From contig OY769902.1 in the NCBI GenBank assembly GCA_963669175.1, positions 4,768,001 to 4,832,000 of the forward strand: 64,000 nucleotides of DNA, in the 5' to 3' direction. The notes under the pieces are model-generated. The model worked only from the letters and a program-made list of their open reading frames with translations, was not told the DNA's origin and did no database searches. The position numbers were made by a program, and so were the translations under genes. Position 1 is the stretch's first letter; every line of letters begins with the position of its first letter. Below are positions 6,185 to 64,000 of this stretch, in pieces. The stretch comes from a bacterium (GTDB lineage: Bacteria; Electryoneota; Electryoneia; Electryoneales; Electryoneaceae).

Positions 6185-7906
6185 ATGTACCGTATCCTGG
6201 CTTCGATCTTCCTGTCCTTCTGTTTATTCACCTACGCATTCAGTCAGGACCAGTTTGTGCCGCATATCTTCAGCGATGAGATTGATATTCCCTGGTCACT
6301 GCTCACCGTGGACATGGATGATGATGGCGATATGGATGTTGTTGCCGCTGGGTATAACGGCGATCTCATTCTGTATGAATTGGACGAGAATCTAAACTTC
6401 GCCTCGCATATAATCTCCGATCACGCTACCGGTGATATCACTGTGTACGCCGTTGATCTGGACGGTGATTTTGACCTGGATATTGTTGGCTCAACCTATT
6501 GCACCGGCAACCTGGTCTGGTGGGAAAATCTCGGCTCTTTCTTCTTTGCGGAACACCTCATCACGGAAGAATATTCACAATTCCTCCAGATCGCTGTTGC
6601 GGATTTCGATCATGACGGTGACATCGATCTGGGCTTACCCTTGCATGAGCAGCTTGGCACTCGCGGGCTGGTGATCGGATGGAACGACGGGGACACCAAT
6701 TTCACCTTTGAGAACATCGCCCCCGGAACCATGCTGAACGGGATTGAAGCGGCGGACCTTGATAATGATAGCGACATGGATCTTGTCGCCAGTGGGGATA
6801 TCATACGCTGGTACGAGAACTGCCTGCCGGACACGTTTATCATGCATGAAATCGGTCCCGGCCCGTCGAACGCCCTGGATATCGCCGTTGCAGATCTGGA
6901 TAACGATGATGACATGGATATCGTTACCGCCGGCTATGAGCATACCTGTCGGGTCTTGTGCTTTCTGAACAACAGCATGGAAGAGTTCTCTTCTTTTATT
7001 CTGGGCGATTTTCAGGGCATCACTCATATCGCGCTGGATGATATCAACGGCGACAACTATACCGACATCGCGCTTTCCATGGAGGGGAGAAGTCTGTGGT
7101 ATGTCCAGAACAACGGCCGTGGGGGCTATTACCCGTTCGAAATCGATGTGGAACAGGGTTCAACCGCACTGGATGTGGCGGATATTGATCAGGATGGCGA
7201 CCTGGACCTGGTGCAGGGACGTTATGAAGCGATGACCTGGTGGGAAAACCAGATCCCGCCTGCCGCACCACCGGGCGCATTCCATGCGATCGCCCCTGCC
7301 GCCAATGCTGCTCTGGCCTTTGAGGATGCTTTCCCTATCGAGTTCCGTTGGTATGCATCTGATCCCGTAAATCCCTGGGATGTCGTCTACTACCGTTTTG
7401 AACTGTCCGTGGTCAAGGATGGCACGGAATACACAACTTCAGAATCGGAACTTAATCGGTATGACTGGTCCGTGAACTTGTCAGAGCTTATCGGAAATGG
7501 CGCTTTTGCGGACCCGTTGAACGCTACGTGGACCGTGACCGCCTACACGAACGGGGGCGAAATCAATTGCATCGAAGGACCGATCCACTTCCGGATTCTC
7601 CCCCCGGTCAGCGTTTCCGATCAAACACAGCAAACGCCAACCAGCTTTGAGCTGTTGCCGGTAGCGCCGAATCCGTTCAATGCGACCGCCAATATTCGAA
7701 TCGCCCTGCCGCAATCCGCGCTGGTCGAACTCGTGGTGATGGATGTGCTGGGCCGCCATGTCTGTACGCTGGCGTCCGGTTCCCTGCAATGCGGCGAACA
7801 CAGCTTCCTGCTAGACGGCTCAAACCTGGCCTCCGGGACTTACCTGGTTCACGCCCGCACTTCACTCGGAGAACAACAGGTCCAGAGGATGATTCTGCTG
7901 AAATAG
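6185..7906 (+). CDS. FG-GAP/VCBS repeat protein with FN3-like domain and T9SS type A C-terminal sorting domain
   Basis: 573 aa. Signal peptide, about 7 DxDxDGDxD repeats, C-terminal PNPFN...LASGTY...KMILLK-like CTD. Confidence 0.9.
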   Translation: MYRILASIFLSFCLFTYAFSQDQFVPHIFSDEIDIPWSLLTVDMDDDGDMDVVAAGYNGDLILYELDENLNFASHIISDHATGDITVYAVDLDGDFDLDIVGSTYCTGNLVWWENLGSFFFAEHLITEEYSQFLQIAVADFDHDGDIDLGLPLHEQLGTRGLVIGWNDGDTNFTFENIAPGTMLNGIEAADLDNDSDMDLVASGDIIRWYENCLPDTFIMHEIGPGPSNALDIAVADLDNDDDMDIVTAGYEHTCRVLCFLNNSMEEFSSFILGDFQGITHIALDDINGDNYTDIALSMEGRSLWYVQNNGRGGYYPFEIDVEQGSTALDVADIDQDGDLDLVQGRYEAMTWWENQIPPAAPPGAFHAIAPAANAALAFEDAFPIEFRWYASDPVNPWDVVYYRFELSVVKDGTEYTTSESELNRYDWSVNLSELIGNGAFADPLNATWTVTAYTNGGEINCIEGPIHFRILPPVSVSDQTQQTPTSFELLPVAPNPFNATANIRIALPQSALVELVVMDVLGRHVCTLASGSLQCGEHSFLLDGSNLASGTYLVHARTSLGEQQVQRMILLK

Positions 7907-8591: not shown

Positions 8592-9710
8592 TCACCTTTC
8601 CCATTCTGCCCATCTCAGATATTGTCTATAAGCTGGATCATTATAATCAACACGTTCTTCATGCATTAGCCTTCCCACGACAATTGAAGGATCGATATGG
8701 ACATGTTCCGCAAAATATACAGTGCTTGATGGTGTAATAGATCCTTTAATAAACTGGTGATACTCAACACTCGGAATAAGAGCATCGCGTGCAAATGTAT
8801 CCGCTTCTTCTTCAAGCAAGTCGTTTTGAGTAAAATTTGATCCCTCAATGAAAATCTTCTGTTCATGCAATAGGATGTGACCAATTTCGTGAAACAGGGT
8901 AAACCAGATCATGTCCCACCTTTTGCCGTGCAGAGTCAGCATAATATGCGGCCGTTTGTTCATCCATACCGTCATGCCTTTAGCCGGAAATCCCTTGAAT
9001 TCTTGAACGAAAAGGAAAACCACTCCTGTAGCTTTTCCAATTTCTCTCAACTGACGTTTGACGACATTCAAATATTGTTCTCTAGTCAGTGTTCTTAAAG
9101 CCGGCAAAGCGCTTTCCAAAACTCTCTTTTTGAAAGTAACAAAAGGCCATTGTTCTTCTTCCGTCTGCTTTTCTCCTAAACGCAACCAAACAGCAAGTTT
9201 TGCATTTGACAAAGCTGTGGTTTTCGCAAGACGAGCTGCCAGACCATAGTTCTTCTCGATATAAGTATCCAATGCAGTAAAGGAAGCGACACGAAGAAAA
9301 CGGTGCAGATGATGAACCCTTTGACGTTTCCCCTCATTGCTTCTTCCATTGACATCAGGCACAAGACCACGCTGTACCAACTCAGTGTAAGGGAACTCGT
9401 TAAGACGTTTCACATCGTTTGCAACCGTTTTTTCATATTCCAGACGTTCTTTGGCCGCTTGATAATTCGCTTCTCTATTCAACCAGTATTGCTGGGTCAT
9501 GCCCAGAACAGTTCCCAACTGCCCGGCAGTCTCAGCGGTAATCGCTTTTTTCGCTTTTATGATCTCGTTGACCATCTGAACCGGACGTCCCATTCTGTGG
9601 GCCAGGTCTTCTTGCCGCATCCCTCTGTCGTCCAACAATTCCTGAATCGTAAAACCAGGTGGGATAGCAATGGGGGCTTTATATGGTTTGGGGGCAACTC
9701 GCGTCGACAT
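8592..9710 (-). CDS. higA: HigA-family antitoxin, XRE-HTH fused to an ImmA/IrrE-like metallopeptidase domain
   Basis: N-terminal IPPGFTIQELL...MRQEDLAHRMG...ITAETA...YWLNREANY; C-terminal WFTLFHEIGH (HExxH). Confidence 0.9.
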   Translation of the reverse strand: MSTRVAPKPYKAPIAIPPGFTIQELLDDRGMRQEDLAHRMGRPVQMVNEIIKAKKAITAETAGQLGTVLGMTQQYWLNREANYQAAKERLEYEKTVANDVKRLNEFPYTELVQRGLVPDVNGRSNEGKRQRVHHLHRFLRVASFTALDTYIEKNYGLAARLAKTTALSNAKLAVWLRLGEKQTEEEQWPFVTFKKRVLESALPALRTLTREQYLNVVKRQLREIGKATGVVFLFVQEFKGFPAKGMTVWMNKRPHIMLTLHGKRWDMIWFTLFHEIGHILLHEQKIFIEGSNFTQNDLLEEEADTFARDALIPSVEYHQFIKGSITPSSTVYFAEHVHIDPSIVVGRLMHEERVDYNDPAYRQYLRWAEWER

Positions 9711-9722
9711 TCCTCATCCTCC

Positions 9723-10061
9723 TCAATGATAGTCTCCGACAAAAACAACTTCAAGCGCAGTCACAGTATTAGGTTTAACCGAACCATTCTCATCTACTTC
9801 ATAGTTACCCACAGGGGCAAGGCATATGACGAAAGGTTTCTTGATCGTTATCGACCACTGGTTTTTCCTGTTTCCCTTTAAGGGATGCCAATCCTTCTTT
9901 CCACCAAGGGGAATCTGCGCAACTGAATCGAATGCGCGAATATGCTCCAGGCGTTCAACCAAAACCGGGAATAAAGTTGTATCCTTGAAGATTTTGGTTG
10001 CAGCCTTCTCCACCGTACATATTTCCTCCAGCTTCAGGCTGCTAAATCCAATATCGATCAT
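9723..10061 (-). CDS. higB: HigB/RelE-ParE-family toxin (plasmid maintenance killer-like)
   Basis: 112 aa, HPLKGNRKNQWSI motif and C-terminal DYH; toxin-first order upstream of higA. Confidence 0.85.
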   Translation of the reverse strand: MIDIGFSSLKLEEICTVEKAATKIFKDTTLFPVLVERLEHIRAFDSVAQIPLGGKKDWHPLKGNRKNQWSITIKKPFVICLAPVGNYEVDENGSVKPNTVTALEVVFVGDYH

Positions 10062-30566: not shown

Positions 30567-32084
30567 TCAATTCGATGACACCGACCTCACCACATTCAGC
30601 ATGATGACTTCCAGACGACGGTTCTTGGATCTGCCGTCCTTTGTCTCGTTCGTTGCAATCGGCCTGTCTTCACCATGTCCGACATAGTTCACGTAGCCAG
30701 GTTTCAGTTTCTTCGAATTCGCCAGCAGGTATTCGAAAACCGACAGCGCACGTCGTTCCGAAAGTTGCTGGTTTGCACGAGTGTCACCCTGGGCATCGGT
30801 ATGGCCTTCAACGCGAACCTTGTTATCCGGGAATTCTTCCAGGGCGATGATCACTCGACGCAGCAGGTCATACGATTCCGGCGGGATATCCGAGGAACCG
30901 GAAGCGAATTGCAATCCAATCAGGCGCAGAATAATATCACTGCCATCGATCAGGATATCGGCTTCGTGTTCGTTCAGCAGTTCACGCAACCTGCGCAATC
31001 GTGCTTCCTGTTCACGCCGGATTTCCTCTTCCAGGCGCTTCTTTTCCATCTCGGTTTCGTACTCACTGGCCAGTGCGCCGTATTCATTACGCCAGCGAGC
31101 AAGTTCTTCGTTTGCCTGGGCAAGCGCCAAGGCGAGGCTATCGTTTTCTGTCTGCAGCGAATCAATCCGTGCCTGCAGAGCGAGGTTATCTCCGAACAGC
31201 CCACGAATAGTGGCAATAATACCCTCGGTTGGCGGTTCAAGCCCCTTTTCGAAAGCCGGCTTATAGCTGATAACCTGCCCGATGGCACTCATGGCGGAAT
31301 CAGCCTGCAACCAGGTAAGCTCAAACGCATCTTTTTTCTTGCGGTATTCACGTGCCCACTGACTGATCCGGTTGGCGTAGGTGGCGTGATACAATGCCTT
31401 TGCCGCTATTTTGTTTCCCAGCACACGGTTGTAACGATCCTCTTCCAGCAGCTCGAAAGTCTTGTCGACGAACTGGTAGGCCAGTTGCAGATTACGTGGC
31501 GAATACTTCTCCGCCCCAAGCTTCTCTGCCTGGTCAATCATGATGCGAGCGTCTTGAGTAATGACCATCTGGATGGCGTAAAGTTCAGCTTCACGGAACA
31601 ATACTTCCGCTTCATCAGCGTACTGCATCGCATTCGGATGGTTGTCTTTGGTTAATGCGTCAATGGCATCACGGAACAACCCTTCAGCCAGCACCCAGGC
31701 CTTCGGCGAATGCCCCAACGCAGCCTGTACAGGTTCACAATCGGCTCGCGCTTCTATGACATCCTTGAAAACTTCCTGGAATCGTTCCGTAGTCCACTGC
31801 GCATCCTGCATGGCTTTTTCGGCAGCTCCAATCGCTTCCTTTGCTTCGAACAGGTTGCCTTTATCGAGAAGCTTTTGTGCGTTCCGTATATGTCCTTCCG
31901 CCTCAGAAAACGCTTCCTCCGCCAGCAGGTCGGCGCTTTCCAGTTTCAGCTCGTTCAGGCGGGTTTTTGCCTGCGAAATCTGCTCTTCAAGTTCTGCCGC
32001 TGTTTGCGCCCCCGATGTAGAGCAAAGTGACAGTATCAGCAACGCAAACAGTATCGCAGCTATGTGAATTCGTCTAGTTTGCAT
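30567..32084 (-). CDS. OmpA-family peptidoglycan-binding protein with long helical/coiled-coil N-terminus
   Basis: C-terminal LQFASGSS...VEGHTDAQG...NQQLSERRA...NRRLEV; signal peptide from ATG 32084. Confidence 0.88.
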   Translation of the reverse strand: MQTRRIHIAAILFALLILSLCSTSGAQTAAELEEQISQAKTRLNELKLESADLLAEEAFSEAEGHIRNAQKLLDKGNLFEAKEAIGAAEKAMQDAQWTTERFQEVFKDVIEARADCEPVQAALGHSPKAWVLAEGLFRDAIDALTKDNHPNAMQYADEAEVLFREAELYAIQMVITQDARIMIDQAEKLGAEKYSPRNLQLAYQFVDKTFELLEEDRYNRVLGNKIAAKALYHATYANRISQWAREYRKKKDAFELTWLQADSAMSAIGQVISYKPAFEKGLEPPTEGIIATIRGLFGDNLALQARIDSLQTENDSLALALAQANEELARWRNEYGALASEYETEMEKKRLEEEIRREQEARLRRLRELLNEHEADILIDGSDIILRLIGLQFASGSSDIPPESYDLLRRVIIALEEFPDNKVRVEGHTDAQGDTRANQQLSERRALSVFEYLLANSKKLKPGYVNYVGHGEDRPIATNETKDGRSKNRRLEVIMLNVVRSVSSN

Positions 32085-33723
32085 GTTGCTCGCTCCCGGT
32101 TTGTTGCGATTGTTTATCGGATTTGTCTGATGTTTTCTCTTTGCCTGTACCGGATGAAGGGAACTCGACCGGCAGATGACGCACATCATCTTCCGCATCT
32201 TTCAGGAAGAGTTTTTGACGAAGTTTTTGCTTATCCTGTGTTGCGATGTCCTTGATCTCACCCGGCGCGGAATGGTGACTGGTGCGAGGTTCGACAAAGA
32301 GAATATCCTCGCGCAGCTCATAGGCGCGATTCTGCCAGTATGCCTTGGTGCGGTAGGGATCACGTTCCGATTGTCCGAAGAACCAGGCCATGTTCAGACC
32401 GAAACTGAACCCTTTGCTGTTGCTGATCAGACCACGTTCCCAGGAAACCCCGATATCCGTTTTCCATCTCTTTCGATGGGTTCCGTAACCGATGCCAAAT
32501 GTGCTTCCACGTCTGCCTCCTACGCCAAATCCGGCACGAAGCAGCTTGGTTCGACTGAACAACCACTCCATGCCACCGCTGAGACGAGTGGTGGATTCGT
32601 TCCCGGGCGCATCATCCAACGCCTGCCTGAGCGCACCGACAACCTGCACATTCTGCACCAGCCACCAACCAGCGCTCAAACGCAAGTCTGTGGGGAGATC
32701 ACCGGTCACACTGACATCTTCCTGCAGGGAATCGACTGAATCGAAGTTGCGTTCCCAATACGCTTCGAAATCGTCCATGCCTTCGAGTGGAATGCCATTC
32801 AGGGTTTGCAGGGCATAAATCCTGCGATCCGCTTTGGACCAGTTGATCTGCCCGAGCAGGTTGGTAAATGCGAGGCTGACTGTACCACGTCGATTTAACA
32901 CCTTGGCTGCGACGCCGAAATCGAGTCCATACCCATGTCCGCCGGTCTGCGCGGAAACGACTTCGACATACCCTTCAGCATCAATACTGTCCACGTCCAT
33001 ATAATACCAGCCGGTCATCTCCTCGCTTTTGCCGTATGCGCCGCCGTAGTAGTAACTCATCGTAAATCCGGCCGCCAGTTCATTCAACCAGTTGTATTCG
33101 CGAACATAGTTCCACTCGTTAAAATCCCGGGCAAAGGCAAAGGCCGCACGTCCGGCTGCCATGGTCTCGCCATAGGTCTGATCGAAGTTGCGGCGTTGGC
33201 CGAAATCATCACGAGTCTGTCCTACGAGGCCCAGGTAGTAGATATCCTTGTCCACATGCAACTCACCCCAGGACAACGCATCGAGGCTGACCGCCATCTG
33301 CCAGGGTCCATAAAGCGGACCACTGAAACCAAGCATGGGGACATAGGCATCCAGTCGGGTGGCCAGGTATTCGCCCTGGATTTCATCGACAAGCGTCTGC
33401 TTTTCAGACTCGGTCAGCAACTTGTCTTCTCTGAAGGTTTCTCCCATACGGGATAACGACCACGAGTTGTTTCCCATGTGCAGGCCAAAGTTGACCACCG
33501 GGAAACGCATGGAGGAGACCGGATTATCTTCAAGGCCAAGCAGCGCGGGATTATAGCCGATTACCTCGACACCACGCGGTAGCACCGTCATGTCGCCACC
33601 AAGCGCAATACCCGTTGCATGGGTAGGCGGCATGGCGAAGCCTGATCCTGCGGTCAACAGCAGGAACATCACGCCGGCGACCATTGCGCCGACTAACCAG
33701 TAACGCCATAATTGCCGTGCCAT
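32074..33723 (-). CDS. Putative outer-membrane beta-barrel protein (DUF5723-like)
   Basis: Signal peptide, GIALGG...YNPALLG start, GYGLDFG, LGQINW, amphipathic beta pattern; family call from motif recognition only. Confidence 0.65.
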   Translation of the reverse strand: MARQLWRYWLVGAMVAGVMFLLLTAGSGFAMPPTHATGIALGGDMTVLPRGVEVIGYNPALLGLEDNPVSSMRFPVVNFGLHMGNNSWSLSRMGETFREDKLLTESEKQTLVDEIQGEYLATRLDAYVPMLGFSGPLYGPWQMAVSLDALSWGELHVDKDIYYLGLVGQTRDDFGQRRNFDQTYGETMAAGRAAFAFARDFNEWNYVREYNWLNELAAGFTMSYYYGGAYGKSEEMTGWYYMDVDSIDAEGYVEVVSAQTGGHGYGLDFGVAAKVLNRRGTVSLAFTNLLGQINWSKADRRIYALQTLNGIPLEGMDDFEAYWERNFDSVDSLQEDVSVTGDLPTDLRLSAGWWLVQNVQVVGALRQALDDAPGNESTTRLSGGMEWLFSRTKLLRAGFGVGGRRGSTFGIGYGTHRKRWKTDIGVSWERGLISNSKGFSFGLNMAWFFGQSERDPYRTKAYWQNRAYELREDILFVEPRTSHHSAPGEIKDIATQDKQKLRQKLFLKDAEDDVRHLPVEFPSSGTGKEKTSDKSDKQSQQTGSEQHAN

Positions 33724-33725
33724 GA

Positions 33726-35936
33726 TCACTCCTCCTCGTTTACCCGGTATACCCCTTCAATCACCAGGGCAACGTCAATACCATCCTGCACATAAGCACG
33801 AATGGCGCACGGGGTCGGGTCAATCCGGACAATCTGACGCAAGTACAGGTTATCTTGCTGAAGCAGGTTTATCCCCTGGTCGCTGATAGCTACACCGACT
33901 GTATCAAGAAGCGTGGCAGAAGCTCGTCCTGTTGAAGGATCTACTTCTGGCGCACGAATCGTCATCGGTTCAATCAGGCTGTAGCGGTTGAGGTTATCCA
34001 GCACCAGTTCGCTCTGCGCCATGGCTTCATCGGAAAAACTTCCGGCCAACAGGTAAAGCGTACCACCGAGCGGGACAGTATTGGTGATGTAGGCATACAG
34101 TCCGGCTTCCTGCAGGCCCGGTTCCAGCCCTTCGCTAAGGTCGGCTACAGGGGCGTGCATGGTTGTTGCTTCGTCTACAGTCAGGGATAACGGCGCTTCA
34201 AGGATTGCTTTCCCGATCACCTGGTCGTTCTTATGCAACATGTACGGTTCATAAGGATCCCAGGGGCTATCCATCATGGGCTCACGTCCCATCAGGGCTG
34301 TTCCTTCAATCACCAGTTGATCAGGGAAATGGTTCAACAGGCTGACCACCTTGGCAGAATCTGCATCACCGGCCCCGCCTATGATCGCGTATTGCTGTTC
34401 CGGGTCCAGCCAGCGTTCGAAGTGCTCGGTTATATTCTGGTCGATATCTCCCAACGACGAATTGACTGCCGTGATGTCCAGCACCAGCTTCGCTGGCGCC
34501 TGGAACTGGCTTCCACGTAAATCGATGACGATCTGAGCGGCATCCAGCGCCACATTTCCGGTCAGGTTACGCTGAAGGTCAGGATCTTCGGTGTCTTCCC
34601 AGACATCGATTTCCACCTCTGTGCGATCCAGTTCAACTTCTTCCTCTTTCGCGCTCCCCCATAACCATTCAAAATCAAAGCTCTCAACGGTCATGGTGGT
34701 CACAACAGTGTCTGAGGATGAGACTTCCCGGATAAGCGGATTTCCCTGCGCATCAAAGCCACCGGACAACACAACGATGGTGACCAGAACATCCATGCTT
34801 TGCGGATCTGGAGTGGGTGTGTTGTATCCTTCAGGTAAATCCATCTGGAGATATTTATCATAGACGGTTACAAACGTATCCAGGCAGACACATTCCTGCC
34901 CCAGTTCCGGCGCTGGCAGGTAGAAACCAAGTGTTAAGGTATCCGCATGAGCATCAGCATCGGTAATCGAAGGCAGTTTCACGTATACAGAATCTTCAGT
35001 TTCCGTGTAGTTCTCGATCTGGAAACGCATGGTGACAGCATTCGCCAGCGCTTCGGTTATCCAGTTCTCTTCTTCATCAAAATCAACGAGTGTCGTGTCC
35101 CGTTCCGGGTCCTGTTTGATGATCACGCCCTTATAGAAGGAAGCGTCCAACGGGCTGACACGCGCGACGAACTCCACCCCGTCTTCCGCTTCTACATACA
35201 CACCGGCCTGTTGAGGACCACTTCCTTCCGCGAACAAAACGATGTTCTGCTTCAATGAGGAACCGGAAAGATCTATTGACTGTTGCTGCGACTCGCCCGG
35301 ATGCAGGTTTGTGTAGACCAATGTGCCCAACGAAGGATTGCCGGGATCTGCTGTTGTTACATCTACAGTTATCTCGTTCCAGGTCAGGTTGGTACTGTTG
35401 GTGACTTCGAGATACAGGAAGCCCCCTCCGGGCACGACATCGGCCTGGTGGAAGTTGTTTAAGGGATCAATGTTGATCTGTGTGTTTGCGACAATGAACA
35501 ACGGGGTAAAATCGTAAAAACCTGCACCGTTGAAACCAGGCACAAAGGCATCCAGCGACATCTGACCATGCGCTTCCTGGGTAGAATCAATGGCAATGAT
35601 GCCTAATTCGGAGGTTTCTTTCGTGGTATCTTCCGGTTCATACCGGGTTAAGGAATCTGCCAGCACGACGGAATCGATCGGTTCTTCGTAATAAAAACGA
35701 AGCAAACCGCTTTCGTACACATCAATACCGCCGCCGTTCTCTGCAATCTCGTCAGGGCGAGATACCAGACTGTCCAATCCGTACCATTGCGAATTTAACG
35801 GGACAGCAAAGTTTACATCCCACTTGGGCATACCTGGATTATCCAGTGAGCAGGACGTTACCGCCAGCATCGCAGTTGCAAGCGTTACGATGAGGAAATG
35901 ACGCAATTGGATGCGAAGGGTTTCTCGACTCTTCAT
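33726..35936 (-). CDS. Large acidic beta-rich lipoprotein of unknown function
   Basis: ATG 35936 with RBS ggagg; lipobox VTSC followed by P.WDV...PL; first gene of a 3-gene operon. Confidence 0.75.
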   Translation of the reverse strand: MKSRETLRIQLRHFLIVTLATAMLAVTSCSLDNPGMPKWDVNFAVPLNSQWYGLDSLVSRPDEIAENGGGIDVYESGLLRFYYEEPIDSVVLADSLTRYEPEDTTKETSELGIIAIDSTQEAHGQMSLDAFVPGFNGAGFYDFTPLFIVANTQINIDPLNNFHQADVVPGGGFLYLEVTNSTNLTWNEITVDVTTADPGNPSLGTLVYTNLHPGESQQQSIDLSGSSLKQNIVLFAEGSGPQQAGVYVEAEDGVEFVARVSPLDASFYKGVIIKQDPERDTTLVDFDEEENWITEALANAVTMRFQIENYTETEDSVYVKLPSITDADAHADTLTLGFYLPAPELGQECVCLDTFVTVYDKYLQMDLPEGYNTPTPDPQSMDVLVTIVVLSGGFDAQGNPLIREVSSSDTVVTTMTVESFDFEWLWGSAKEEEVELDRTEVEIDVWEDTEDPDLQRNLTGNVALDAAQIVIDLRGSQFQAPAKLVLDITAVNSSLGDIDQNITEHFERWLDPEQQYAIIGGAGDADSAKVVSLLNHFPDQLVIEGTALMGREPMMDSPWDPYEPYMLHKNDQVIGKAILEAPLSLTVDEATTMHAPVADLSEGLEPGLQEAGLYAYITNTVPLGGTLYLLAGSFSDEAMAQSELVLDNLNRYSLIEPMTIRAPEVDPSTGRASATLLDTVGVAISDQGINLLQQDNLYLRQIVRIDPTPCAIRAYVQDGIDVALVIEGVYRVNEEE

Positions 35937-36534
35937 GACGCCTCCTTCACTGTGTCTTCTCCCTCTAAACACAGCTTGTTATGCAGTAAAATGCTCCTGA
36001 AGTGTTTCAAGTCTTCTGAAACAGCTCTGCGTAAATCTCTTCTTGTAACCAGTGTGAGCTTCATCACATTTTCCTGTTTGTTTTAACAAAACAAGCTTTC
36101 CCTTCCCGCGAATAAAGTGCCACCGTCTTCTAATTCCTTCTTTGACTTTTGTCACAATGCGATCATTTCGGAGAGCTAAGGTCCAAATAATGAAACGTTT
36201 CTATATACTTTTTTCTGTCTTTTCGGAATTTCGAGGTTTCAGGAAGGGTTTTCTTAGGGTGTTGTTTTTCAACTTTTTGTTTCGGCTTTTTGGAAAAAAA
36301 TGAGGTTTCAGGATTTGCCCCCCGGAATCGGGTGACAGGGCTCACAAAACCAGGTTTTTCAGGAAAACCGGGATGCAAATGCAACAACTCATGGCAAGTC
36401 AGTGAGAGGCATGCGGCGAGAATCAGGCTCTATTGAAGAGGATCATGACGTTTTGATGGATGGCGTGGGGAGAAGTGAAAAAGTAGTCAGTGTAGGAAGT
36501 GAAAAAAGTTGTCAGTGAAAAAAGTGAAAAATGT

Positions 36535-55912: not shown

Positions 55913-57295
55913 ATGTCATCAAAGCGCCTGGTATTCACTTTGGTTTTGTTTGGCGTGTTTGCGTTTCTGGTGCAAGCCGAAGACCACAGCGAACATATCG
56001 AAGGACCATTTGAGTCCCCGCAGGAAGTAACGGCCACTTGTATAATGTGCCATGACAATGTTGCGGACGAAATCATGGCGACCCGTCACTGGAACTGGCA
56101 GGGTGAAGCCTTTAATGGTGATGGGAAAGAAAAAGTTCGCCTGGGCAAAATTAACATGATTAACAACTTTTGTATCGCGGTGCCCTCCAACTGGCCACGA
56201 TGCACAAGTTGTCATATCGGCTATGGCTGGAAGGACGAGACTTTTGATCATTCCAACCCGGAAAACATTGACTGCCTGGTATGCCATGACCGTACCGGCA
56301 CCTATTCCAAGACAGCTACAGCAGCCGGGATGCCGGCGCCGGATGTTGACCTGGTGGCAGTTGCTCAAAGTGTAGGATTTACCAGCCGTCAGACCTGTGG
56401 CAAGTGTCACTACGATGGCGGTGGCGGCGCTGGTGTAAAACATGGCGATATGGACCCCAGCCTGCTGGAACCGCCGGAAGACCTTGACGTACACATGGGC
56501 ATGTATGATTTCCAGTGTGCGGATTGTCATGCTGAAGAAGGGCATAAGATTCGTGGCGCCGGACATGCGTCCATGGCGGCGAACACCAATCATTTCGACT
56601 GCACGACCTGCCATGAGATGCCGATTCATGACAAATCACGCTTGAACGACCACACGGAACACATCGCCTGCGAGACCTGCCATATCCCCAGCTTTGCACG
56701 TATCGAACCGACCAAGGTCTGGTGGGACTGGTCAACAGCCGGACAGGATCGTAAGGCCAGTCGTGACCAGTTCGGGCACGAGAATTACAACAAGAAGAAA
56801 GGCGATTTCGTCTGGAAAAAGGATGTTCAACCGGAGTATCGCTGGCATAACGGCGGCGTCGAGTATTATATGTTCGGAGATAAAATCGACACAACCGCGA
56901 TTGTCGTGTTGAACGAGCTGAATGGCAGTATCGAGGACACCAACTCCAAGATCACCCCGTTCAAGGTAATGCACGCGAAGCAGCCCTTTGATCCGGTTAA
57001 TATGACGTTAATCGTGCCCCACCTGTTCGGACCTGAAGGTTACTGGAAAACCTTCAACTGGGAGCAGGCGGCGCAGATCGGGATGGAAGCGGTCGGCTTG
57101 CCCTTCAGCGGCAATGTTGAGTTTGTTGAGACGGACATGTACTGGCCGATCAACCATATGGTCGCCCCTTCTGAGCAGGCGCTGCGTTGTACGGATTGTC
57201 ACGGCAAGAAGTCCCGTTTCGATTGGGAAGCCCTTGGTTACCCGGGCGATCCCATGAAAAAAGGTGGACGTGCGGAACACTTCGATTTGAAATAG
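55913..57295 (+). CDS. Octaheme c-type cytochrome, tetrathionate reductase (OTR) family
   Basis: Signal peptide; 8 CxxCH motifs (CIMCH, CTSCH, CLVCH, CGKCH, CADCH, CTTCH, CETCH, CTDCH); GK.N.INNFC, WDWSTAG and WPINHMVAP motifs. Confidence 0.92.
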   Translation: MSSKRLVFTLVLFGVFAFLVQAEDHSEHIEGPFESPQEVTATCIMCHDNVADEIMATRHWNWQGEAFNGDGKEKVRLGKINMINNFCIAVPSNWPRCTSCHIGYGWKDETFDHSNPENIDCLVCHDRTGTYSKTATAAGMPAPDVDLVAVAQSVGFTSRQTCGKCHYDGGGGAGVKHGDMDPSLLEPPEDLDVHMGMYDFQCADCHAEEGHKIRGAGHASMAANTNHFDCTTCHEMPIHDKSRLNDHTEHIACETCHIPSFARIEPTKVWWDWSTAGQDRKASRDQFGHENYNKKKGDFVWKKDVQPEYRWHNGGVEYYMFGDKIDTTAIVVLNELNGSIEDTNSKITPFKVMHAKQPFDPVNMTLIVPHLFGPEGYWKTFNWEQAAQIGMEAVGLPFSGNVEFVETDMYWPINHMVAPSEQALRCTDCHGKKSRFDWEALGYPGDPMKKGGRAEHFDLK

Positions 57296-57479: not shown

Positions 57480-58751
57480 TTACGGTTGCAACTCTATCAC
57501 ACTGACTGTACCGTCCATGTTGTTTGCGACAACCGCATAATTGCCGTGTGGACTGATGGCGATCCCGACCGGCCCCATGCCGACATTGATTGTAGACACT
57601 ACCTCACCGGTCCAGGTGCGTACGATTGAAACCGTATTATCGTCAAAATTGGTTACATACACGTAGTACCCGCCTTTGCCACAGGCGATTTCCGAGGGTT
57701 TCCGTCCCACTTCAATCGTCTCTGTCACCTGGTTCACATACGTGTCAATCACGGAAACGGTGCCATCGTTGGCGTTGGCCACATAAACAACTTCACCTAT
57801 CGGGTCCATGGCCAGCCCCTGGGGACCGAAACCTACTGGAATCGTCGCCACAAGACTGTTGTCCGATTGGTTCAGGACTGTGACATCATGATCGGAAATA
57901 CTGCTGATGTATACATAATCACCAAAGGGACCGGCGATAGCGTCGAACGGCACCTTGTTGAATGTCAACGAACCCGTAATGGAGACGTCTGCACCATCCA
58001 GCGAAAGCACAGTCACAGACGAATCACCCGCACAGGTAACCCAACCAAGTTCACCACCGGGGGCAAGATTGATGTGCAACGGGAGGGCATCAACTGCTGT
58101 TGCCTGCACCACATCATTCGTCTCTGTTGAGACTGAAGTAATGCTCCCATCTTCCCCATTGGCCACATACGCCAGTATACTATCCTCGGCGGCAACAATA
58201 CCATATGGGGAATTCAGACCGGCAATCTCAGCTTCCACAGTCCAATCGAGTGCAGAAATGACAGAAACCGTGTTGGACCCGGTATTGGTCACAAGCACCT
58301 TTTCACCGTCCGGGAGAAAAGCAACACCGAAGGGTTGGTCCCCAACATTGACAGTTTCAACGATGTTCCAGCTCATGGTTGAAACCGCACGCATGCCGGA
58401 TAATTCGGAAGTGAATCCGTCAATATCCTCTACAATCATGTAGAGATAATAGCGCGTTGCCGGTTCCAGCCCATCAACGGTTGCCATCGTATCCGCCTGA
58501 TCCGTGTAGTCAATGCTTTCGAACAACTCCGAATCGAATTCCGGATTTGTTCCCACATACAGGCGATAGGCAACAAAATCATCATCGAAATTGGAAGTCC
58601 ACGCGATATCCACAGATGTTTCTGTAGGATTATGAACCTCCAGGATCTGAGGTGCGAGCGGTTCGGGGCCACGTCCCTCCAGGCATCCCATCATCAGGAT
58701 GCCGATTACCAGTACCGCGAGCAGTCGCACATATGGGGTTCTTCTCTGCAT
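57480..58751 (-). CDS. Lipoprotein with FN3 domain and YVTN/YncE beta-propeller repeats
   Basis: Lipobox MMGC; FN3 (GLEPATRYY); about 7 VG..P.G.A...G..YV.N..D.TVSVI repeats. Confidence 0.88.
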   Translation of the reverse strand: MQRRTPYVRLLAVLVIGILMMGCLEGRGPEPLAPQILEVHNPTETSVDIAWTSNFDDDFVAYRLYVGTNPEFDSELFESIDYTDQADTMATVDGLEPATRYYLYMIVEDIDGFTSELSGMRAVSTMSWNIVETVNVGDQPFGVAFLPDGEKVLVTNTGSNTVSVISALDWTVEAEIAGLNSPYGIVAAEDSILAYVANGEDGSITSVSTETNDVVQATAVDALPLHINLAPGGELGWVTCAGDSSVTVLSLDGADVSITGSLTFNKVPFDAIAGPFGDYVYISSISDHDVTVLNQSDNSLVATIPVGFGPQGLAMDPIGEVVYVANANDGTVSVIDTYVNQVTETIEVGRKPSEIACGKGGYYVYVTNFDDNTVSIVRTWTGEVVSTINVGMGPVGIAISPHGNYAVVANNMDGTVSVIELQP

Positions 58752-58819
58752 CTCAACCCCCAACTATGAAAAGGTTGTTGTGTCTTCGAAACGTATCGTA
58801 TTTCATACGGAATACCTGT

Positions 58820-61800
58820 TTACCGTACCAGTACAGCCTTACGGGTCATGACACTCCCGCCGTGCTGCACCTGGATGAAGTACACACCGCTGACCAGTTC
58901 CTGGCCTGCATCGAACATGTACCTGTGATACCCTGCCGTGAGATAACGGTTCTCTTCGTGAACCAGTCGGCCCAGCAGGTTGAATACGCGCACATGAACA
59001 TCACCCTCGGACGGAAGCCCGAACTGCATGTGAACCGTACTGTTGAACGGGTTCGGATACAGGCTGCCGACCATGAATTCTGTCGGTAACGCAATCGCAC
59101 GTTCCAGGGTCAGCTCAGCGAAACCACCTGAGGTAAATCGTGTCGGACCATCAATGATGTCACTGGCAATAACACCGCCGGAAGCATCCACAAGCTGCAC
59201 GGTTACCGGATTGCCGGGCTGGAATCCCGGAAGCCTCATCTTCGGCATTCCCTGCCAGATGGTAATCTTCGTGCGCCCGCCATCGCTGATATTGGCGCGT
59301 CCCACCATCAGGTCGCCGTCCAACACCTCGATAGCATCAGCGCCCATTCCGGCAAGTTCTGCATTCAGGCTTACAACCATCGTAAACGGCAGACCTGTGC
59401 GGGTAACACCTTCCGGGATACGCATCGGCTTGCGAAGTTGGGGCTTGCCTGCTGTCGCAACGGTCCAGCCACCGGAACTGAAGCTGAAGGTCACATCTTC
59501 CGACACGAAGACTTCATAGCCTTCACCGGGGAACAAGGTCACCAGGTCGCTCAGCTCTGCGTCACCCGGAATCCAGGTATAACCGTCATCGTTACGAACC
59601 AGCTCAACCACATCCATAATGGCTTCGAAGCCGGTTTCAACCGGCACGGCGAAGTCGAACGGATAACCGACCAGGTTCAGCTTGTCCGCCTGCAGGGTGT
59701 ACTCAATGGACGGGTCCATCGGGCTGCCGGTGATAGCGAACCGCGAATCGGAAGAGGTCAGCACACGGAAGCCTTCGGTCAGATCCACATCACCGATAGT
59801 ATTCACTGCCGGTGGGATCGCCATGCGGACATCGTCCTGGTAAACCAGCAACAGGTCATCAATCTCGTTGAACAGAGCCAGCGCATCGCTTTCCAGCGGT
59901 TGCAGGTAGAAGCTGATCAATTCGAAACCTTCCGATGACAACGGCAGGTTCATCTCAACCACATCACTCAGAACGACATCCATCTCCAGGATATCACCGC
60001 CAACGATCTGTACATCTTCCTGTACGAAGGTCGCGTATTCCGTATGGGTTACACGCAGGTCGTATACACCGTCAGGAACTTCGAAGAATGTGTATGCGCC
60101 TTCACTGTCCGTGTAAACCGCCCAGATGTTGTCGGTATCATCCACCAGGGACAACCGTGCGCCATCCACTGCAAGGCCACCTTCCGATGCGGTAACCATA
60201 CCGGTCAATTCCGGGATATCCGTGGTGAAGGACCAGACTTCCGAGGACCAGGTGCCATCGGTGTTGGTATCCTGCGCACGAACCTTCCACCAGTATTCAA
60301 CACCGTCCAGGATATCTTCCAGCAGGACGTTATCATCTTCAGTAGACAGTGAATCAAGGTTTTCGGTAAACAGAGCGTCAGTAGCGAACCAGACCCAGTA
60401 AATCAGTGTATCGCCCGGATCACTGTCCGTGGTGAGGTTCCACTGTACCAGCGCGTCTTCCCCGTTGAGCACCTCTGTGTCAGCCGGAGATGCCAGGCTG
60501 AAGGCTTCCGGGGTGTCGTACTGGTATACATCGAACGCCCAGCCATCCAACGGATTCGCCTGTGTCTGCAATCCGAACAGGTCGGTTGCGGTAACACGCC
60601 AGTAGACCGTGATGTCATCCGGCAATTCATCCAGTTCGCTTTCCGGACCGCCGAATAGGGCCTGTCCCAGGCCACCAACAAGTGCAAGGGCTGCTTCCGG
60701 ACCACGACTGCGTCCGGATTCCATCATCACGCCACTCTTGCCGGAAGACCGTTCCATCCGAACACGTCCGCCCAGGCTTCCCTGCGGGTGACTGGCAACC
60801 ACTGCCGCCAGTTCGTCGATGACGAAGAAGGTGTCAGAAGTGACAGCGCTGAAGGCGTCTGTAAAGGTTGGATCCAGTGACCACTCAACCGTGTATTCAA
60901 GCGTATCTGACGGATCAGGATCATCGGCACGATCCCAGTAAACTTCTGCGAATTCCTCATGTACCACAAATCCACTGTCAGGGCCGGCCAGTTCGAACGC
61001 TATCGGCGCTTCCGGGATGTAAACATCGAAGCTCCAGACATCGTCCGTCCAGGTGCCTTCCGTGTTGGTATCCTGGGCACGAACCTTCCAGTATATGGTC
61101 TGGTCGTCATCCATGCCGGTAAAGGTGTAGGTTGTATCGTTTACTTCAACAGAATCACGATCCGCGAAGTCAACATCGTTGGACCAGTACAGCCAGTAGC
61201 TGAAGCTGTCGCCAGGATCGGGATCAATCGTGGATTGCCAGACGACCGTGGTATCACCGGTACGGATAACTGCGCCGCTGTCCGGGCCAACCAGGGTGAA
61301 GGCTTCCGGCGGATCGAACAGGTAAACATCAAAGGACCAGCCAGTTTCTTCTTCCGTAGACCAGGCCTCCAGGGTGAAGCTGTCGATCGCCTTCACACGC
61401 CAGTAGATCGTGGTGTTATCCGGCAATTCATCCAGACCAACTTCACCACCTTCGATGATCGGGGACGCGTTGGAAGAACCTCCCAGTGCGTTCGAGTTGT
61501 TCTTTTCGCCCTTATCACGATCCTGATCCTGATTCACTTTGAAGGAACCGGTAGCCATAAAGGTCTCATCACTACCGTCATCCGTCGGTTTGTTGTTTCG
61601 TCCGATTCCCATCGCCATCGCTTCTTCAAGGCTGCTTACCTCGAAGAATGTGTCAGCAGTGGTTGCGCTCAGGAAATCAGTAAATGTCGCATCGCCTGAC
61701 CACTGGATCTCGTATCCGATTACATCACCGGGATCGGGATCAAGTGCGGTGTTCCAGACAACATTGATGGTATCGTTGTTGACTTCTGCGCCATCTTCCG

Positions 61801-64000
61801 GCTCAAGCAGTGCGAACGGTACTGGCGGATCCGGGATGTACACGTTCAGGGTCAGCACGTTGGAAGACCAGGTGCCTAACGTATTCGTATCCTGCGCCCG
61901 GACCTTCCACCAATAGGTGACGTCATCCATCATCCCGGTCAGATCGAACGAAGTTTCTGTTACGGTTGCCGAGTCAAGATCTGTGGTAAACGCTGCATCT
62001 GTCGCCCACCAGACCACGTAGGAAATGTCATCATCCGGGTCGGGATCAGTGGCTGCATTCCAGACCAGGGTAGTATCACCGGTCCAGACGGTTTCACCGT
62101 CAGCCGGGCCGGTCAGATCGAAAGCATTCGGCGCTTCCGGTACTTCAACGTGGAACCAGCGACCGTTTTCACCGGCATCCGCCCAGGTGGACAATCCGTA
62201 ACTGTCTTCCGCCCAGACACGCCAGTAGACGGTAGTATTATCCGGAAGTTCATCCAGCTCGTTTTCGCCTGCGCTTTCGCCCGGCGCCTGTTCGCCACCA
62301 CCACTCACTTCACCCTGGCTGATCACCTTTCCGTTCGGAATTCCGGCAAGTTCATTGCCTCCCGAAGGATTGTCACTATTAACACGTGCGCCGATTCCCA
62401 TCAGCACATCCGCCAAGTCGTGAATGATGTAAGATGTTTCAGCGGTCAGCGTATCGTACAGGGTTGCGAACGTCGGGTCGTTTGACCATTCCACGTGATA
62501 CTCGATCACGTCGGCCGGGTCGATATCCGTAGCCGCGTCCCATGCAACCGCCACGGTATCGTTTTCAACCGTGTCTTCATCAGCCGGTGTCAACAGGGCG
62601 AAGGATTCCGGTGCGATGGGTACGTAGATCGACCAGGTTTCGTTCGACCATGTACCGGTCGTGTTGGTATCCTGCGCGCGCACCTTCCAGTACCAGCTCT
62701 GGCCCTGGGTCAAGGCGCTCAACTGTGTTGTGGCTGAGGTCAGACCGGTGATCGAGTCGAGATCGGTTGCAAACGCCATGTCAGACGCATACCAGACTAC
62801 GTATTCAATTACGTCGCCCGGATCCGGATCAGTTGTCGTTTCCCAGGTCAGGTCGATATCCGCTTCCGTATGCGCCGATTCATCATCCGGGGTCAACAAG
62901 CTGAAGGCGGCCGGCGGTTCTGCGACCGCGACAAAGAAGCTGTGTCCGGTTTCACCGGCATCCGCCCAAGTGCTGTCATCTTCGGAGTCAACCGCGACGA
63001 CTCGCCAGTATACCCAGGCGTCATCGGGCAACTCATCCAGCTCATCCTCACCACCATTTTCGCCAGCCTCATCATCCGCGCCTGTCTCCATACCTTCCCC
63101 GAAGCCTTCTCCGGGATTGACACGAATCTTTCCACCGGCAACGGCGCCGTTCATGGCAATTCCGCCGGTCTCTTCATTGCCGCCGTCATCACCACCTTCA
63201 TTGCCCATGGCCATCACTTCGGTGATATCCGTAATGATATAGAAGGTATCGGTCGTCGTCGCGTTCAATAGCTCACTGAAGTCGGATTGAGCTGACCATT
63301 CCACAGTGTAAGTAACATCGTCACCATCAGGATCAACCGCCGTATGCCAGTTGACGGTAATGGTGTCGTTGTATACGGTAGCCTCGTCTGCCGGATCAAT
63401 CAGGGCAAATGCGTTTGGCGGTTCATTGGTCCAGACAGTGAAGCTCCAGGTCTGGGTTGACCATGTGCCGACCGTGTTATCATCCTGCGCCCTGACTTTC
63501 CACCAATAATCAGTTTCATCGGTCAAACCAACCAATGTTGTAGTGGTGTCGAGCAGGCCGACTATGGAATCCAGATCTGTCGTAAAGGCCTGATCCGTAG
63601 CATACCACAGAACATACTCGATAGTATCATCCGGGTCTTCATCCGTGGTTGAACGCCAGTGCAGCTCAACATCAAGCTCACGGCTCCGGTATCCACTATC
63701 AGGTAATGCCAGGTTAAATGCTAACGGTGCATTCGGGATACGCACCACGAAGGAATAGACTGAACTCGACCAGGTACCGCCCGTATTGGTATCCTGTGCC
63801 CAGACCTTCCAGTAGTAGGTGCTGTCATCCTGCAATCCGGTCAACGTGACAAAAGCATCTTCCGTATCGGTTGAATCGTAGGATTCCGCTCCGAATTCGG
63901 AATCAAAGCCCCAGTAGATCCAATAGATGACCGAATCACCCGGATCGTTTTCAACAGCAGTTTCCCACTCGAAGAGTTCGTTGGCCGTGTAAACCGTATC
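58820..64000 (-). CDS. Giant FN3-like repeat surface protein with CarboxypepD_reg-like domain and T9SS type A CTD (5' end outside window)
   Basis: Frame stays open to the window edge (>1720 aa); at least 10 ~100-aa repeats (P..F.L..P...W....DPD....Y...YW.V.A.D); ends YPNPFN...SGVYF...KAVLVR. Confidence 0.92.
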   Translation of the reverse strand, partial: DTVYTANELFEWETAVENDPGDSVIYWIYWGFDSEFGAESYDSTDTEDAFVTLTGLQDDSTYYWKVWAQDTNTGGTWSSSVYSFVVRIPNAPLAFNLALPDSGYRSRELDVELHWRSTTDEDPDDTIEYVLWYATDQAFTTDLDSIVGLLDTTTTLVGLTDETDYWWKVRAQDDNTVGTWSTQTWSFTVWTNEPPNAFALIDPADEATVYNDTITVNWHTAVDPDGDDVTYTVEWSAQSDFSELLNATTTDTFYIITDITEVMAMGNEGGDDGGNEETGGIAMNGAVAGGKIRVNPGEGFGEGMETGADDEAGENGGEDELDELPDDAWVYWRVVAVDSEDDSTWADAGETGHSFFVAVAEPPAAFSLLTPDDESAHTEADIDLTWETTTDPDPGDVIEYVVWYASDMAFATDLDSITGLTSATTQLSALTQGQSWYWKVRAQDTNTTGTWSNETWSIYVPIAPESFALLTPADEDTVENDTVAVAWDAATDIDPADVIEYHVEWSNDPTFATLYDTLTAETSYIIHDLADVLMGIGARVNSDNPSGGNELAGIPNGKVISQGEVSGGGEQAPGESAGENELDELPDNTTVYWRVWAEDSYGLSTWADAGENGRWFHVEVPEAPNAFDLTGPADGETVWTGDTTLVWNAATDPDPDDDISYVVWWATDAAFTTDLDSATVTETSFDLTGMMDDVTYWWKVRAQDTNTLGTWSSNVLTLNVYIPDPPVPFALLEPEDGAEVNNDTINVVWNTALDPDPGDVIGYEIQWSGDATFTDFLSATTADTFFEVSSLEEAMAMGIGRNNKPTDDGSDETFMATGSFKVNQDQDRDKGEKNNSNALGGSSNASPIIEGGEVGLDELPDNTTIYWRVKAIDSFTLEAWSTEEETGWSFDVYLFDPPEAFTLVGPDSGAVIRTGDTTVVWQSTIDPDPGDSFSYWLYWSNDVDFADRDSVEVNDTTYTFTGMDDDQTIYWKVRAQDTNTEGTWTDDVWSFDVYIPEAPIAFELAGPDSGFVVHEEFAEVYWDRADDPDPSDTLEYTVEWSLDPTFTDAFSAVTSDTFFVIDELAAVVASHPQGSLGGRVRMERSSGKSGVMMESGRSRGPEAALALVGGLGQALFGGPESELDELPDDITVYWRVTATDLFGLQTQANPLDGWAFDVYQYDTPEAFSLASPADTEVLNGEDALVQWNLTTDSDPGDTLIYWVWFATDALFTENLDSLSTEDDNVLLEDILDGVEYWWKVRAQDTNTDGTWSSEVWSFTTDIPELTGMVTASEGGLAVDGARLSLVDDTDNIWAVYTDSEGAYTFFEVPDGVYDLRVTHTEYATFVQEDVQIVGGDILEMDVVLSDVVEMNLPLSSEGFELISFYLQPLESDALALFNEIDDLLLVYQDDVRMAIPPAVNTIGDVDLTEGFRVLTSSDSRFAITGSPMDPSIEYTLQADKLNLVGYPFDFAVPVETGFEAIMDVVELVRNDDGYTWIPGDAELSDLVTLFPGEGYEVFVSEDVTFSFSSGGWTVATAGKPQLRKPMRIPEGVTRTGLPFTMVVSLNAELAGMGADAIEVLDGDLMVGRANISDGGRTKITIWQGMPKMRLPGFQPGNPVTVQLVDASGGVIASDIIDGPTRFTSGGFAELTLERAIALPTEFMVGSLYPNPFNSTVHMQFGLPSEGDVHVRVFNLLGRLVHEENRYLTAGYHRYMFDAGQELVSGVYFIQVQHGGSVMTRKAVLVR

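Follow-up and report, generated by a model that had tools for sequence, protein, structure and literature searches.

The window analyzed here, a 64,000-nucleotide stretch of contig OY769902.1 (GenBank assembly GCA_963669175.1, positions 4,768,001 to 4,832,000) from a bacterium of the Electryoneaceae, encodes a giant secreted protein with an array of fibronectin type III (Fn3) repeats and a C-terminal sorting domain (CTD) of T9SS, the type IX secretion system. A short motif that recurs in this protein, (E)-[LIF]-D|[E/D/small], where the bar marks the predicted cut, is read here as the putative recognition site of an Asp-specific maturation protease for the secreted CTD proteins of Electryonea-like bacteria, with a probability of roughly three in four. 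The original prediction, made from the window alone, had proposed either a dedicated protease site or hypervariable display and decoy loops. The results favor the putative protease site, which is strengthened by sequence matches to the motif at zymogen junctions. Display or decoy loops fail to explain the motif at the ends of pro-segments and in nearly loop-free repeats.

From amino acid 92 of the window protein, five plain repeats of about 100 amino acids (measured lengths 101-103) alternate with four insert-bearing repeats of 160-172 amino acids. Each insert consists of a short helix and a disordered Gly/acidic loop of 43-54 residues, 57-69 residues in total; the predicted insert of 45-55 residues fits the loop and leaves out the helix. 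LDE occurs four times, with Leu codons at 63040, 62257, 61435 and 60634, and is followed each time by LPD and the YWRV strand (ELDELPD at three sites, GLDELPD at one), in agreement with the original prediction. About one LDE would be expected from composition, and all four are found at one repeat position; the stretch from the last Fn3 repeat to the CTD contains none. The inserts had been said to share no sequence, which holds for five of the six pairs and not for inserts 1 and 2, which show a weak relationship (p 0.003 versus shuffled sequences). The strict alternation that had been described is likewise correct from amino acid 92 only, as two plain repeats adjoin at the open end of the gene and homologues do not alternate strictly. 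Core identity is 47% among the four insert-bearing repeats, 48% among four plain repeats and 35% between the two groups; by sequence, the insert-bearing ones form a separate subtype. Duplication of the two subtypes as a two-domain unit explains the alternation. The protein scores above the cut-off for PF00041 (Fn3), and no Pfam or NCBIfam model matches the motif or the insert.

A structure model of insert-bearing repeat 2, built from 132 aligned repeats, is a seven-strand sandwich with a mean predicted local distance difference test (pLDDT) score of 80 and a core above 90. Both the helix (pLDDT 66-74) and the loop (pLDDT 45-55) are located between strands E and F, with LDE at the C-terminal end of the low-confidence loop, and the best Foldseek matches to the model are Fn3 domains (E 5e-4). 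In this model the loop leaves the Fn3 fold intact. A fold of three repeats computed from the sequence alone gave no usable model (pLDDT 34).

The coupling of the motif to the inserts was analyzed in 449 distinct repeats, taken from 114 homologous proteins and from 25 of 27 loci (two overlapping loci were dropped). With 35 repeats of intermediate length left out, [LIVMF]D[ED] was found at the E-F position in 62 of 83 long-loop repeats versus 6 of 331 short-loop repeats, and none of the 14 short repeats with LPD carried a motif of the LDE type. Within the insert-bearing subtype, when a wider set of residues after Asp was allowed, the motif was found in 56 of 66 insert-bearing repeats versus none of eight insert-free ones, one mis-measured insert-free row being left out. 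At the 62 anchored sites, Asp is present in 59 and is preceded by Leu, Ile or Phe in 55; the residue after it is Glu in 46, Asp in five and Asn in five (56 total), and Glu is the commonest residue at P3 (28 of 62). Inserts range from about 6 to more than 80 amino acids across homologues, and the motif is kept even where they measure 6-12. Thus, the motif and not the loop is the conserved part. The original prediction had allowed that LDELPD might be an Fn3 motif equally present in insert-free homologues, and the insert-free LPD repeats lack LDE; by sequence, LPD is the ordinary Fn3 motif and LDE is separate from it. In loci L001, L002 and L006, longer inserts and insert-bearing repeats seem to be placed preferentially toward the C-terminal end of the array.

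Enrichment of ELD[ED] was determined in two sets of proteins. The locus set comprised the window and loci of this lineage. It is biased: the pattern used to fetch the loci included the motif, six proteins were assigned manually to the CTD class, and 14 shadow open reading frames were taken out. The 35 CTD-class proteins of this set contain 43 occurrences versus 5.0 in shuffles, and 18 versus 3.1 expected once the Fn3 site is masked. The independent set was collected with a profile of the CTD only (148 new proteins among the 150 matches listed, 10 multi-CTD proteins dropped, 138 left), so that its lineage is inferred from the CTD alone. It contains 38 occurrences versus 5.4 expected; masking of the Fn3 site leaves 31 versus 4.8, and two permuted words stay at background level (8 versus 5.9 and 6 versus 6.0). 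There was no excess in the 86 non-CTD proteins of the locus set (4 versus 2.3 expected), and the 21 proteins with a CTD or dockerin from other lineages had no occurrence (0.4 expected). Enrichment was thus found in the CTD-bearing proteins of both sets and not in the non-CTD proteins of the locus set. A lineage-specific system had been proposed, and the signal is lineage-wide; as judged by sequence, it is particular neither to one protein nor to Fn3. A second CTD protein of the window, at 6185-7906 on the forward strand, has FG-GAP repeats and a single ELDE within the repeat region, which is probably due to chance.

Outside this type of Fn3, the motif closes N-terminal segments before GGPD/NIDO-like domains, precedes a cleaved-adhesin domain matching Kgp K1, precedes arylsulfotransferase propellers, and lies before strand C in a different type of Fn3, within its B-C loop. 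In two protease families it coincides with zymogen junctions, the positions being extrapolated without gaps: in the subtilase P0358 it is at most two residues from the mature start of subtilisin BPN', and in the C25 protein P0140 it is one residue from the mature start of RgpB, for which the consulted portion of the literature gives cleavage at Arg229. From upstream to downstream of the motif, the increase in hydrophobic content is larger than at other xLD words (p 0.0002).

The GGPD linkers allow other lineages to be compared. Three residues before GGPD, the 102 linker ends have Arg in 23, Asp in 19, Leu in 14, Thr in 11, Lys in 11 and Glu in 8, and the following residue is mostly Gly, Asp, Ala or Asn. 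Leu or Ile precedes Asp in 16 of the 19 members of the Asp class. A Cloacimonetes protein is among those with Arg, and a Delongbacteria protein among those with Lys. Among 119 Kgp-like C25 proteins, mostly close orthologues, Lys occupies the homologous position at 84 of 102 sites. Lys at this position is what would be expected if a Lys-specific enzyme cuts itself, and the comparison places Asp at the predicted P1. In protein P0067, PRRD stands in for ELD twice (amino acids 1197 and 1668), once at the Fn3 site homologous to that of the motif and once in a further linker. Many lineages also have a Lys-Gly word some 15-20 residues upstream of GGPD, which might mark another cut or serve for docking. 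Fn3 loops harbor entire GGPD/NIDO-like domains in P0046, where the motif is present, and at L009:9263-20965.

From these sequences we infer a cut, its P1 register and the fate of the pieces as follows, with a clan CD (C25-like) enzyme as the probable agent. After export and folding, the protease would cut behind the Asp that closes an exposed linker at its C-terminal end, and the upstream loop would be a freely evolving spacer that exposes the site. A cut at the end of an N-terminal pro-segment would release the mature domain or activate an enzyme. A cut inside Fn3, in the E-F loop here and in the B-C loop elsewhere, would nick the chain, and in the window protein strands A-E and F-G would stay in one sandwich. 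The nicked giant protein would then be a string of non-covalently joined pieces, like RgpA and Kgp. Regulated shedding, flexibility or strand exchange are possible roles of the nick in the repeat array.

Several results weigh against this proposal. A profile scan of the window proteins identified no C25 or other candidate maturation protease. ELD[ED] is present in only 25 of 100 CTD proteins of at least 400 amino acids in the independent set and missing from the other 75, and bare LD[ED] is not enriched in the locus set with the Fn3 site masked (51 versus 48). Hydrophobicity upstream of the motif does not differ significantly from that of other xLD words (0.30 versus 0.33, p 0.13). The motif is missing from the second GGPD domain of L009, which likewise sits within an Fn3 domain. 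LDEL aligns with L-x-G-L of the plain repeats, and its Leu may thus be inherited. In addition, an acidic P1' is unusual for caspases.

Other explanations of the motif differ in which of these observations they can accommodate. It is unlikely that the motif is an uncleaved tag at loop ends that binds a chaperone, a shuttle, a metal ion or a partner protein. Such a tag would be consistent with a five-residue preference with acidic flanks, with the persistence of the motif beside inserts of 6-12 residues and with the failure to find a protease for it in the data searched, but it does not agree with the motif at the pro/mature junctions of two unrelated protease families, nor with Lys or Arg replacing Asp at the homologous site elsewhere, Lys in Kgp-like enzymes. 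A protease site cut one bond away (L|D or E|L), with an AspN-like, PorU-like or glutamyl endopeptidase as the enzyme, is quite unlikely, and it is partly counted within the protease-site reading because the maturation system would be identical either way. A few homologous sites in which Asp-Glu is preceded by Thr, Tyr or Arg-Arg point in this direction, as does the preference of PorU for a polar or acidic P1' given in the portion of the literature consulted; the same portion gives a small P1 and not Leu as favored by PorU, Asp is in register with the Lys of Kgp-like enzymes, and Asp is constant while the residue after it varies.

Loops for hypervariable display or decoy, with the motif as a fixed anchor, are very unlikely; loop length and sequence do differ between repeats, but the loops are low-complexity and the motif is also found at pro-segments that can be removed and in repeats with hardly any loop. 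It is highly improbable that LDELPD is a structural Fn3 motif spread through repeat duplication. LPD and the Leu before it match the Fn3 E-F turn, and the repeat subtype is a duplicated unit, yet the motif is in none of the eight insert-free repeats of the subtype or the 14 short LPD repeats, its enrichment persists with the Fn3 site masked, and the sites outside Fn3 largely refute this explanation. A mobile or gene-converted DNA element that writes the motif has next to no probability. Leu-Asp is spelled CTG GAT at each of the four sites in the window, but the 32 sites of Candidatus Electryonea clarkiae contain 24 different 12-mers with codon use near background, and this spread of codons refutes the element.

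A search for a co-occurring secreted Asp/Glu-specific peptidase, for example a C25-like one, had also been suggested. No C25 is encoded in the window, and elsewhere a subfamily of C25 proteins without the catalytic His and with [LI]DE junctions provides a weak candidate. In the five C25 proteins with an [LI]DE junction, the catalytic Cys is kept, Phe or Tyr replaces His211, Asp163 is missing, Arg replaces Thr209 and, in an equivalence that depends on the alignment, a His is located near Trp284. The loss of the acidic pocket residue and the gain of Arg are compatible with a preference for Asp. The subfamily (P0140, P0143, P0136, P0144, P0297 and relatives) is widespread; its members replace Thr-Gly-His by Arg-Gly-aromatic and share a conserved THT motif. 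From its sequences it would be a rewired protease or a pseudo-protease and may be inactive, and its presence also in Zixibacteria and in proteins whose linkers end in Arg is evidence against its candidacy. It is possible, though doubtful, that this His-less subfamily is the Asp-reading protease. His-bearing C25 proteins with acidic junctions, one of them from LCP-89, have a Kgp-like pocket, and their acidic junctions, if cut, would therefore be cut by another enzyme. No C25 protein with both His and Cys and a basic S1 pocket was found among the 147 C25 proteins aligned, a weak negative, as the underlying listing covered the best 120 of 1645 matches and mostly one Kgp-like group. C25-like genes in loci L022 and L023 were rejected as candidates since they belong to other lineages.

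A wider and more speculative proposal, rather unlikely to hold in full, is that the linkers of secreted proteins carry a maturation code of a single residue, particular to each lineage of the Fibrobacteres-Chlorobi-Bacteroidetes (FCB) group (Asp in this lineage; Arg, Lys, Leu, Thr or Glu in others). The reader of this code in Electryonea-like bacteria would be the rewired gingipain-fold enzyme, which lacks His211 and Asp163, has gained Arg and has its His at another place. It would act as a secreted, caspase-like maturase or transpeptidase for Asp sites, and the E-F nick could let F-G hairpins swap between molecules to form a surface mesh.

Named relatives and synteny suggest a placement in Ca. 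Electryoneota. The best named relatives are proteins of Ca. Electryonea clarkiae, and two top matches are labelled Calditrichota by their source. The C-terminal 464 amino acids of the window protein share 47% identity with a protein of Ca. Electryonea clarkiae that is syntenic and has the same propeller gene after it. Zixibacteria homologues have plain repeats only, without ELD[ED] or GLD[ED]. The start of the window gene is outside the window; homologues, for example in locus L009, start with a hydrophobic leader. The features of the gene and its neighbor are listed below.

Features of the giant CTD gene and the adjacent propeller gene (positions in the window)
Feature	Position	Strand	Remarks
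Giant secreted CTD protein, open reading frame	58820..64000	-	1726 amino acids, 5' end open at window edge
Partial plain Fn3 repeat	63728-64000	-	at open end of reading frame
Plain Fn3 repeat	63419..63727	-	repeat comparison
Insert-bearing Fn3 repeat 1	62915..63418	-	helix and loop 63032-63229
ELDE site 1	63032..63043	-	predicted cut D|E (putative)
Plain Fn3 repeat	62612..62914	-	repeat comparison
Insert-bearing Fn3 repeat 2	62132..62611	-	helix and loop 62249-62419; used for structure model
ELDE site 2	62249..62260	-	motif position in reading frame
Plain Fn3 repeat	61826..62131	-	repeat comparison
Insert-bearing Fn3 repeat 3	61310..61825	-	helix and loop 61427-61633
GLDE site 3	61427..61438	-	motif position in reading frame
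Plain Fn3 repeat	61007..61309	-	repeat comparison
Insert-bearing Fn3 repeat 4	60512..61006	-	helix and loop 60626-60814
ELDE site 4	60626..60637	-	motif position in reading frame
Plain Fn3 repeat, last of array	60212..60511	-	repeat comparison
Carboxypeptidase regulatory-like domain PF13620	59969..60208	-	E 2e-12
T9SS type A C-terminal sorting domain	58823..59092	-	PF18962 36 bits, TIGR04183 39 bits, both above curated cut-off
YVTN-type beta-propeller gene, lipoprotein-like N-terminus	57480..58763	-	downstream of giant gene; 37% identity to L006 gene

A YVTN-type propeller gene of the lipoprotein-like kind follows the giant CTD gene in the window and in L002, L006 and L013. None of PorKLMN, SprA, PorV or PorU was found among the 34 window open reading frames scanned. 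The window contains a type VI secretion system (T6SS) cluster at 10303-32198 on the reverse strand, with TssJ, TssK, TssL, TssM, TagF, TssA and VipA/B as well as Hcp, TssE, TssF, TssG and a ClpV-like ATPase. Its membrane-complex genes are of what we take to be the proteobacterial kind, which the T6SS of Bacteroidota, to our knowledge, lack; this type is unusual in a genome of the FCB group. Just upstream of the cluster, two large secreted or membrane proteins of 748 and 551 amino acids without Pfam or NCBIfam match (30567-35972, reverse strand) adjoin an OmpA-domain protein. A multiheme cytochrome c (PF11783) is encoded at 55913-57295 on the forward strand. A protein with helix-turn-helix and M78 domains (8592-10061, reverse strand) and the small gene upstream of it presumably form a toxin-antitoxin pair.

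Maturation of secretomes by surface proteases has so far been worked out mainly for Porphyromonas gingivalis. If the proposal is correct, a lineage-wide Asp signal would extend such maturation to uncultured FCB phyla, and the mature N-termini of many proteins would be predictable from sequence. In addition, clan CD proteases with new specificities could be sought by a simple rule, in which the residue at the linker end is read first and a matching S1 pocket is then looked for. An extracellular Asp-specific relative of gingipains would inform the origin of caspase-like specificity and could be useful as a reagent. The proposal is testable without culturing the organism, with a peptide or an Fn3 substrate.

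No published description of the motif was found in the literature searched, which covered few subscription papers. Background was drawn from the consulted portions of PMC5266723, PMC10319874, PMC4357240, PMC5445135 and PMC8542988; PMC9324843 reports many secreted S8 proteases, and its main text mentions no T9SS, C25, gingipain or fibronectin. Compared with Fn3 and SusE-like Ig repeats, the repeats described here share the seven-strand sandwich and differ by the helix and the disordered loop that separate strand E from strand F. A surface gingipain cuts within a beta-sandwich protein during maturation of the type V pilin, and the cut predicted here would likewise be inside a beta-sandwich protein, but strand exchange or polymer formation has no support here. 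Caspases and legumain, of clan CD, are Asp-specific, and the motif would resemble their sites in its predicted Asp at P1 and in Glu as the commonest residue at P3, whereas the cargo here is extracellular and bacterial and has an acidic P1'; no caspase-family enzyme was linked to the motif in this analysis. PorU is also a C25-fold enzyme that acts on CTD cargo. According to the consulted literature it makes a single cut of low specificity before the CTD, whereas the motif sites are internal and Leu-Asp and do not match the site of a PorU substrate.

The closest comparison is with RgpA and Kgp of P. gingivalis, CTD cargo which, according to the portion of the literature consulted, is cut at fixed residues while the pieces remain non-covalently joined; the same portion gives ABM1 and ABM2 as possible binding partners. 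Both systems share the C25 and cleaved-adhesin modules, and the P1 residue is predicted to be Asp here (59 of 62 sites) but is Arg or Lys in gingipains. Gingipain ABM1 and ABM2 may together form a split Fn3. The sites described here differ further in having a multi-residue motif, in being found in many unrelated cargo proteins and in having spacer loops, purpose-like in appearance, inside Fn3 domains. By this analogy, the putative system would resemble gingipain processing in manner, and its predicted specificity would set it apart from membership.
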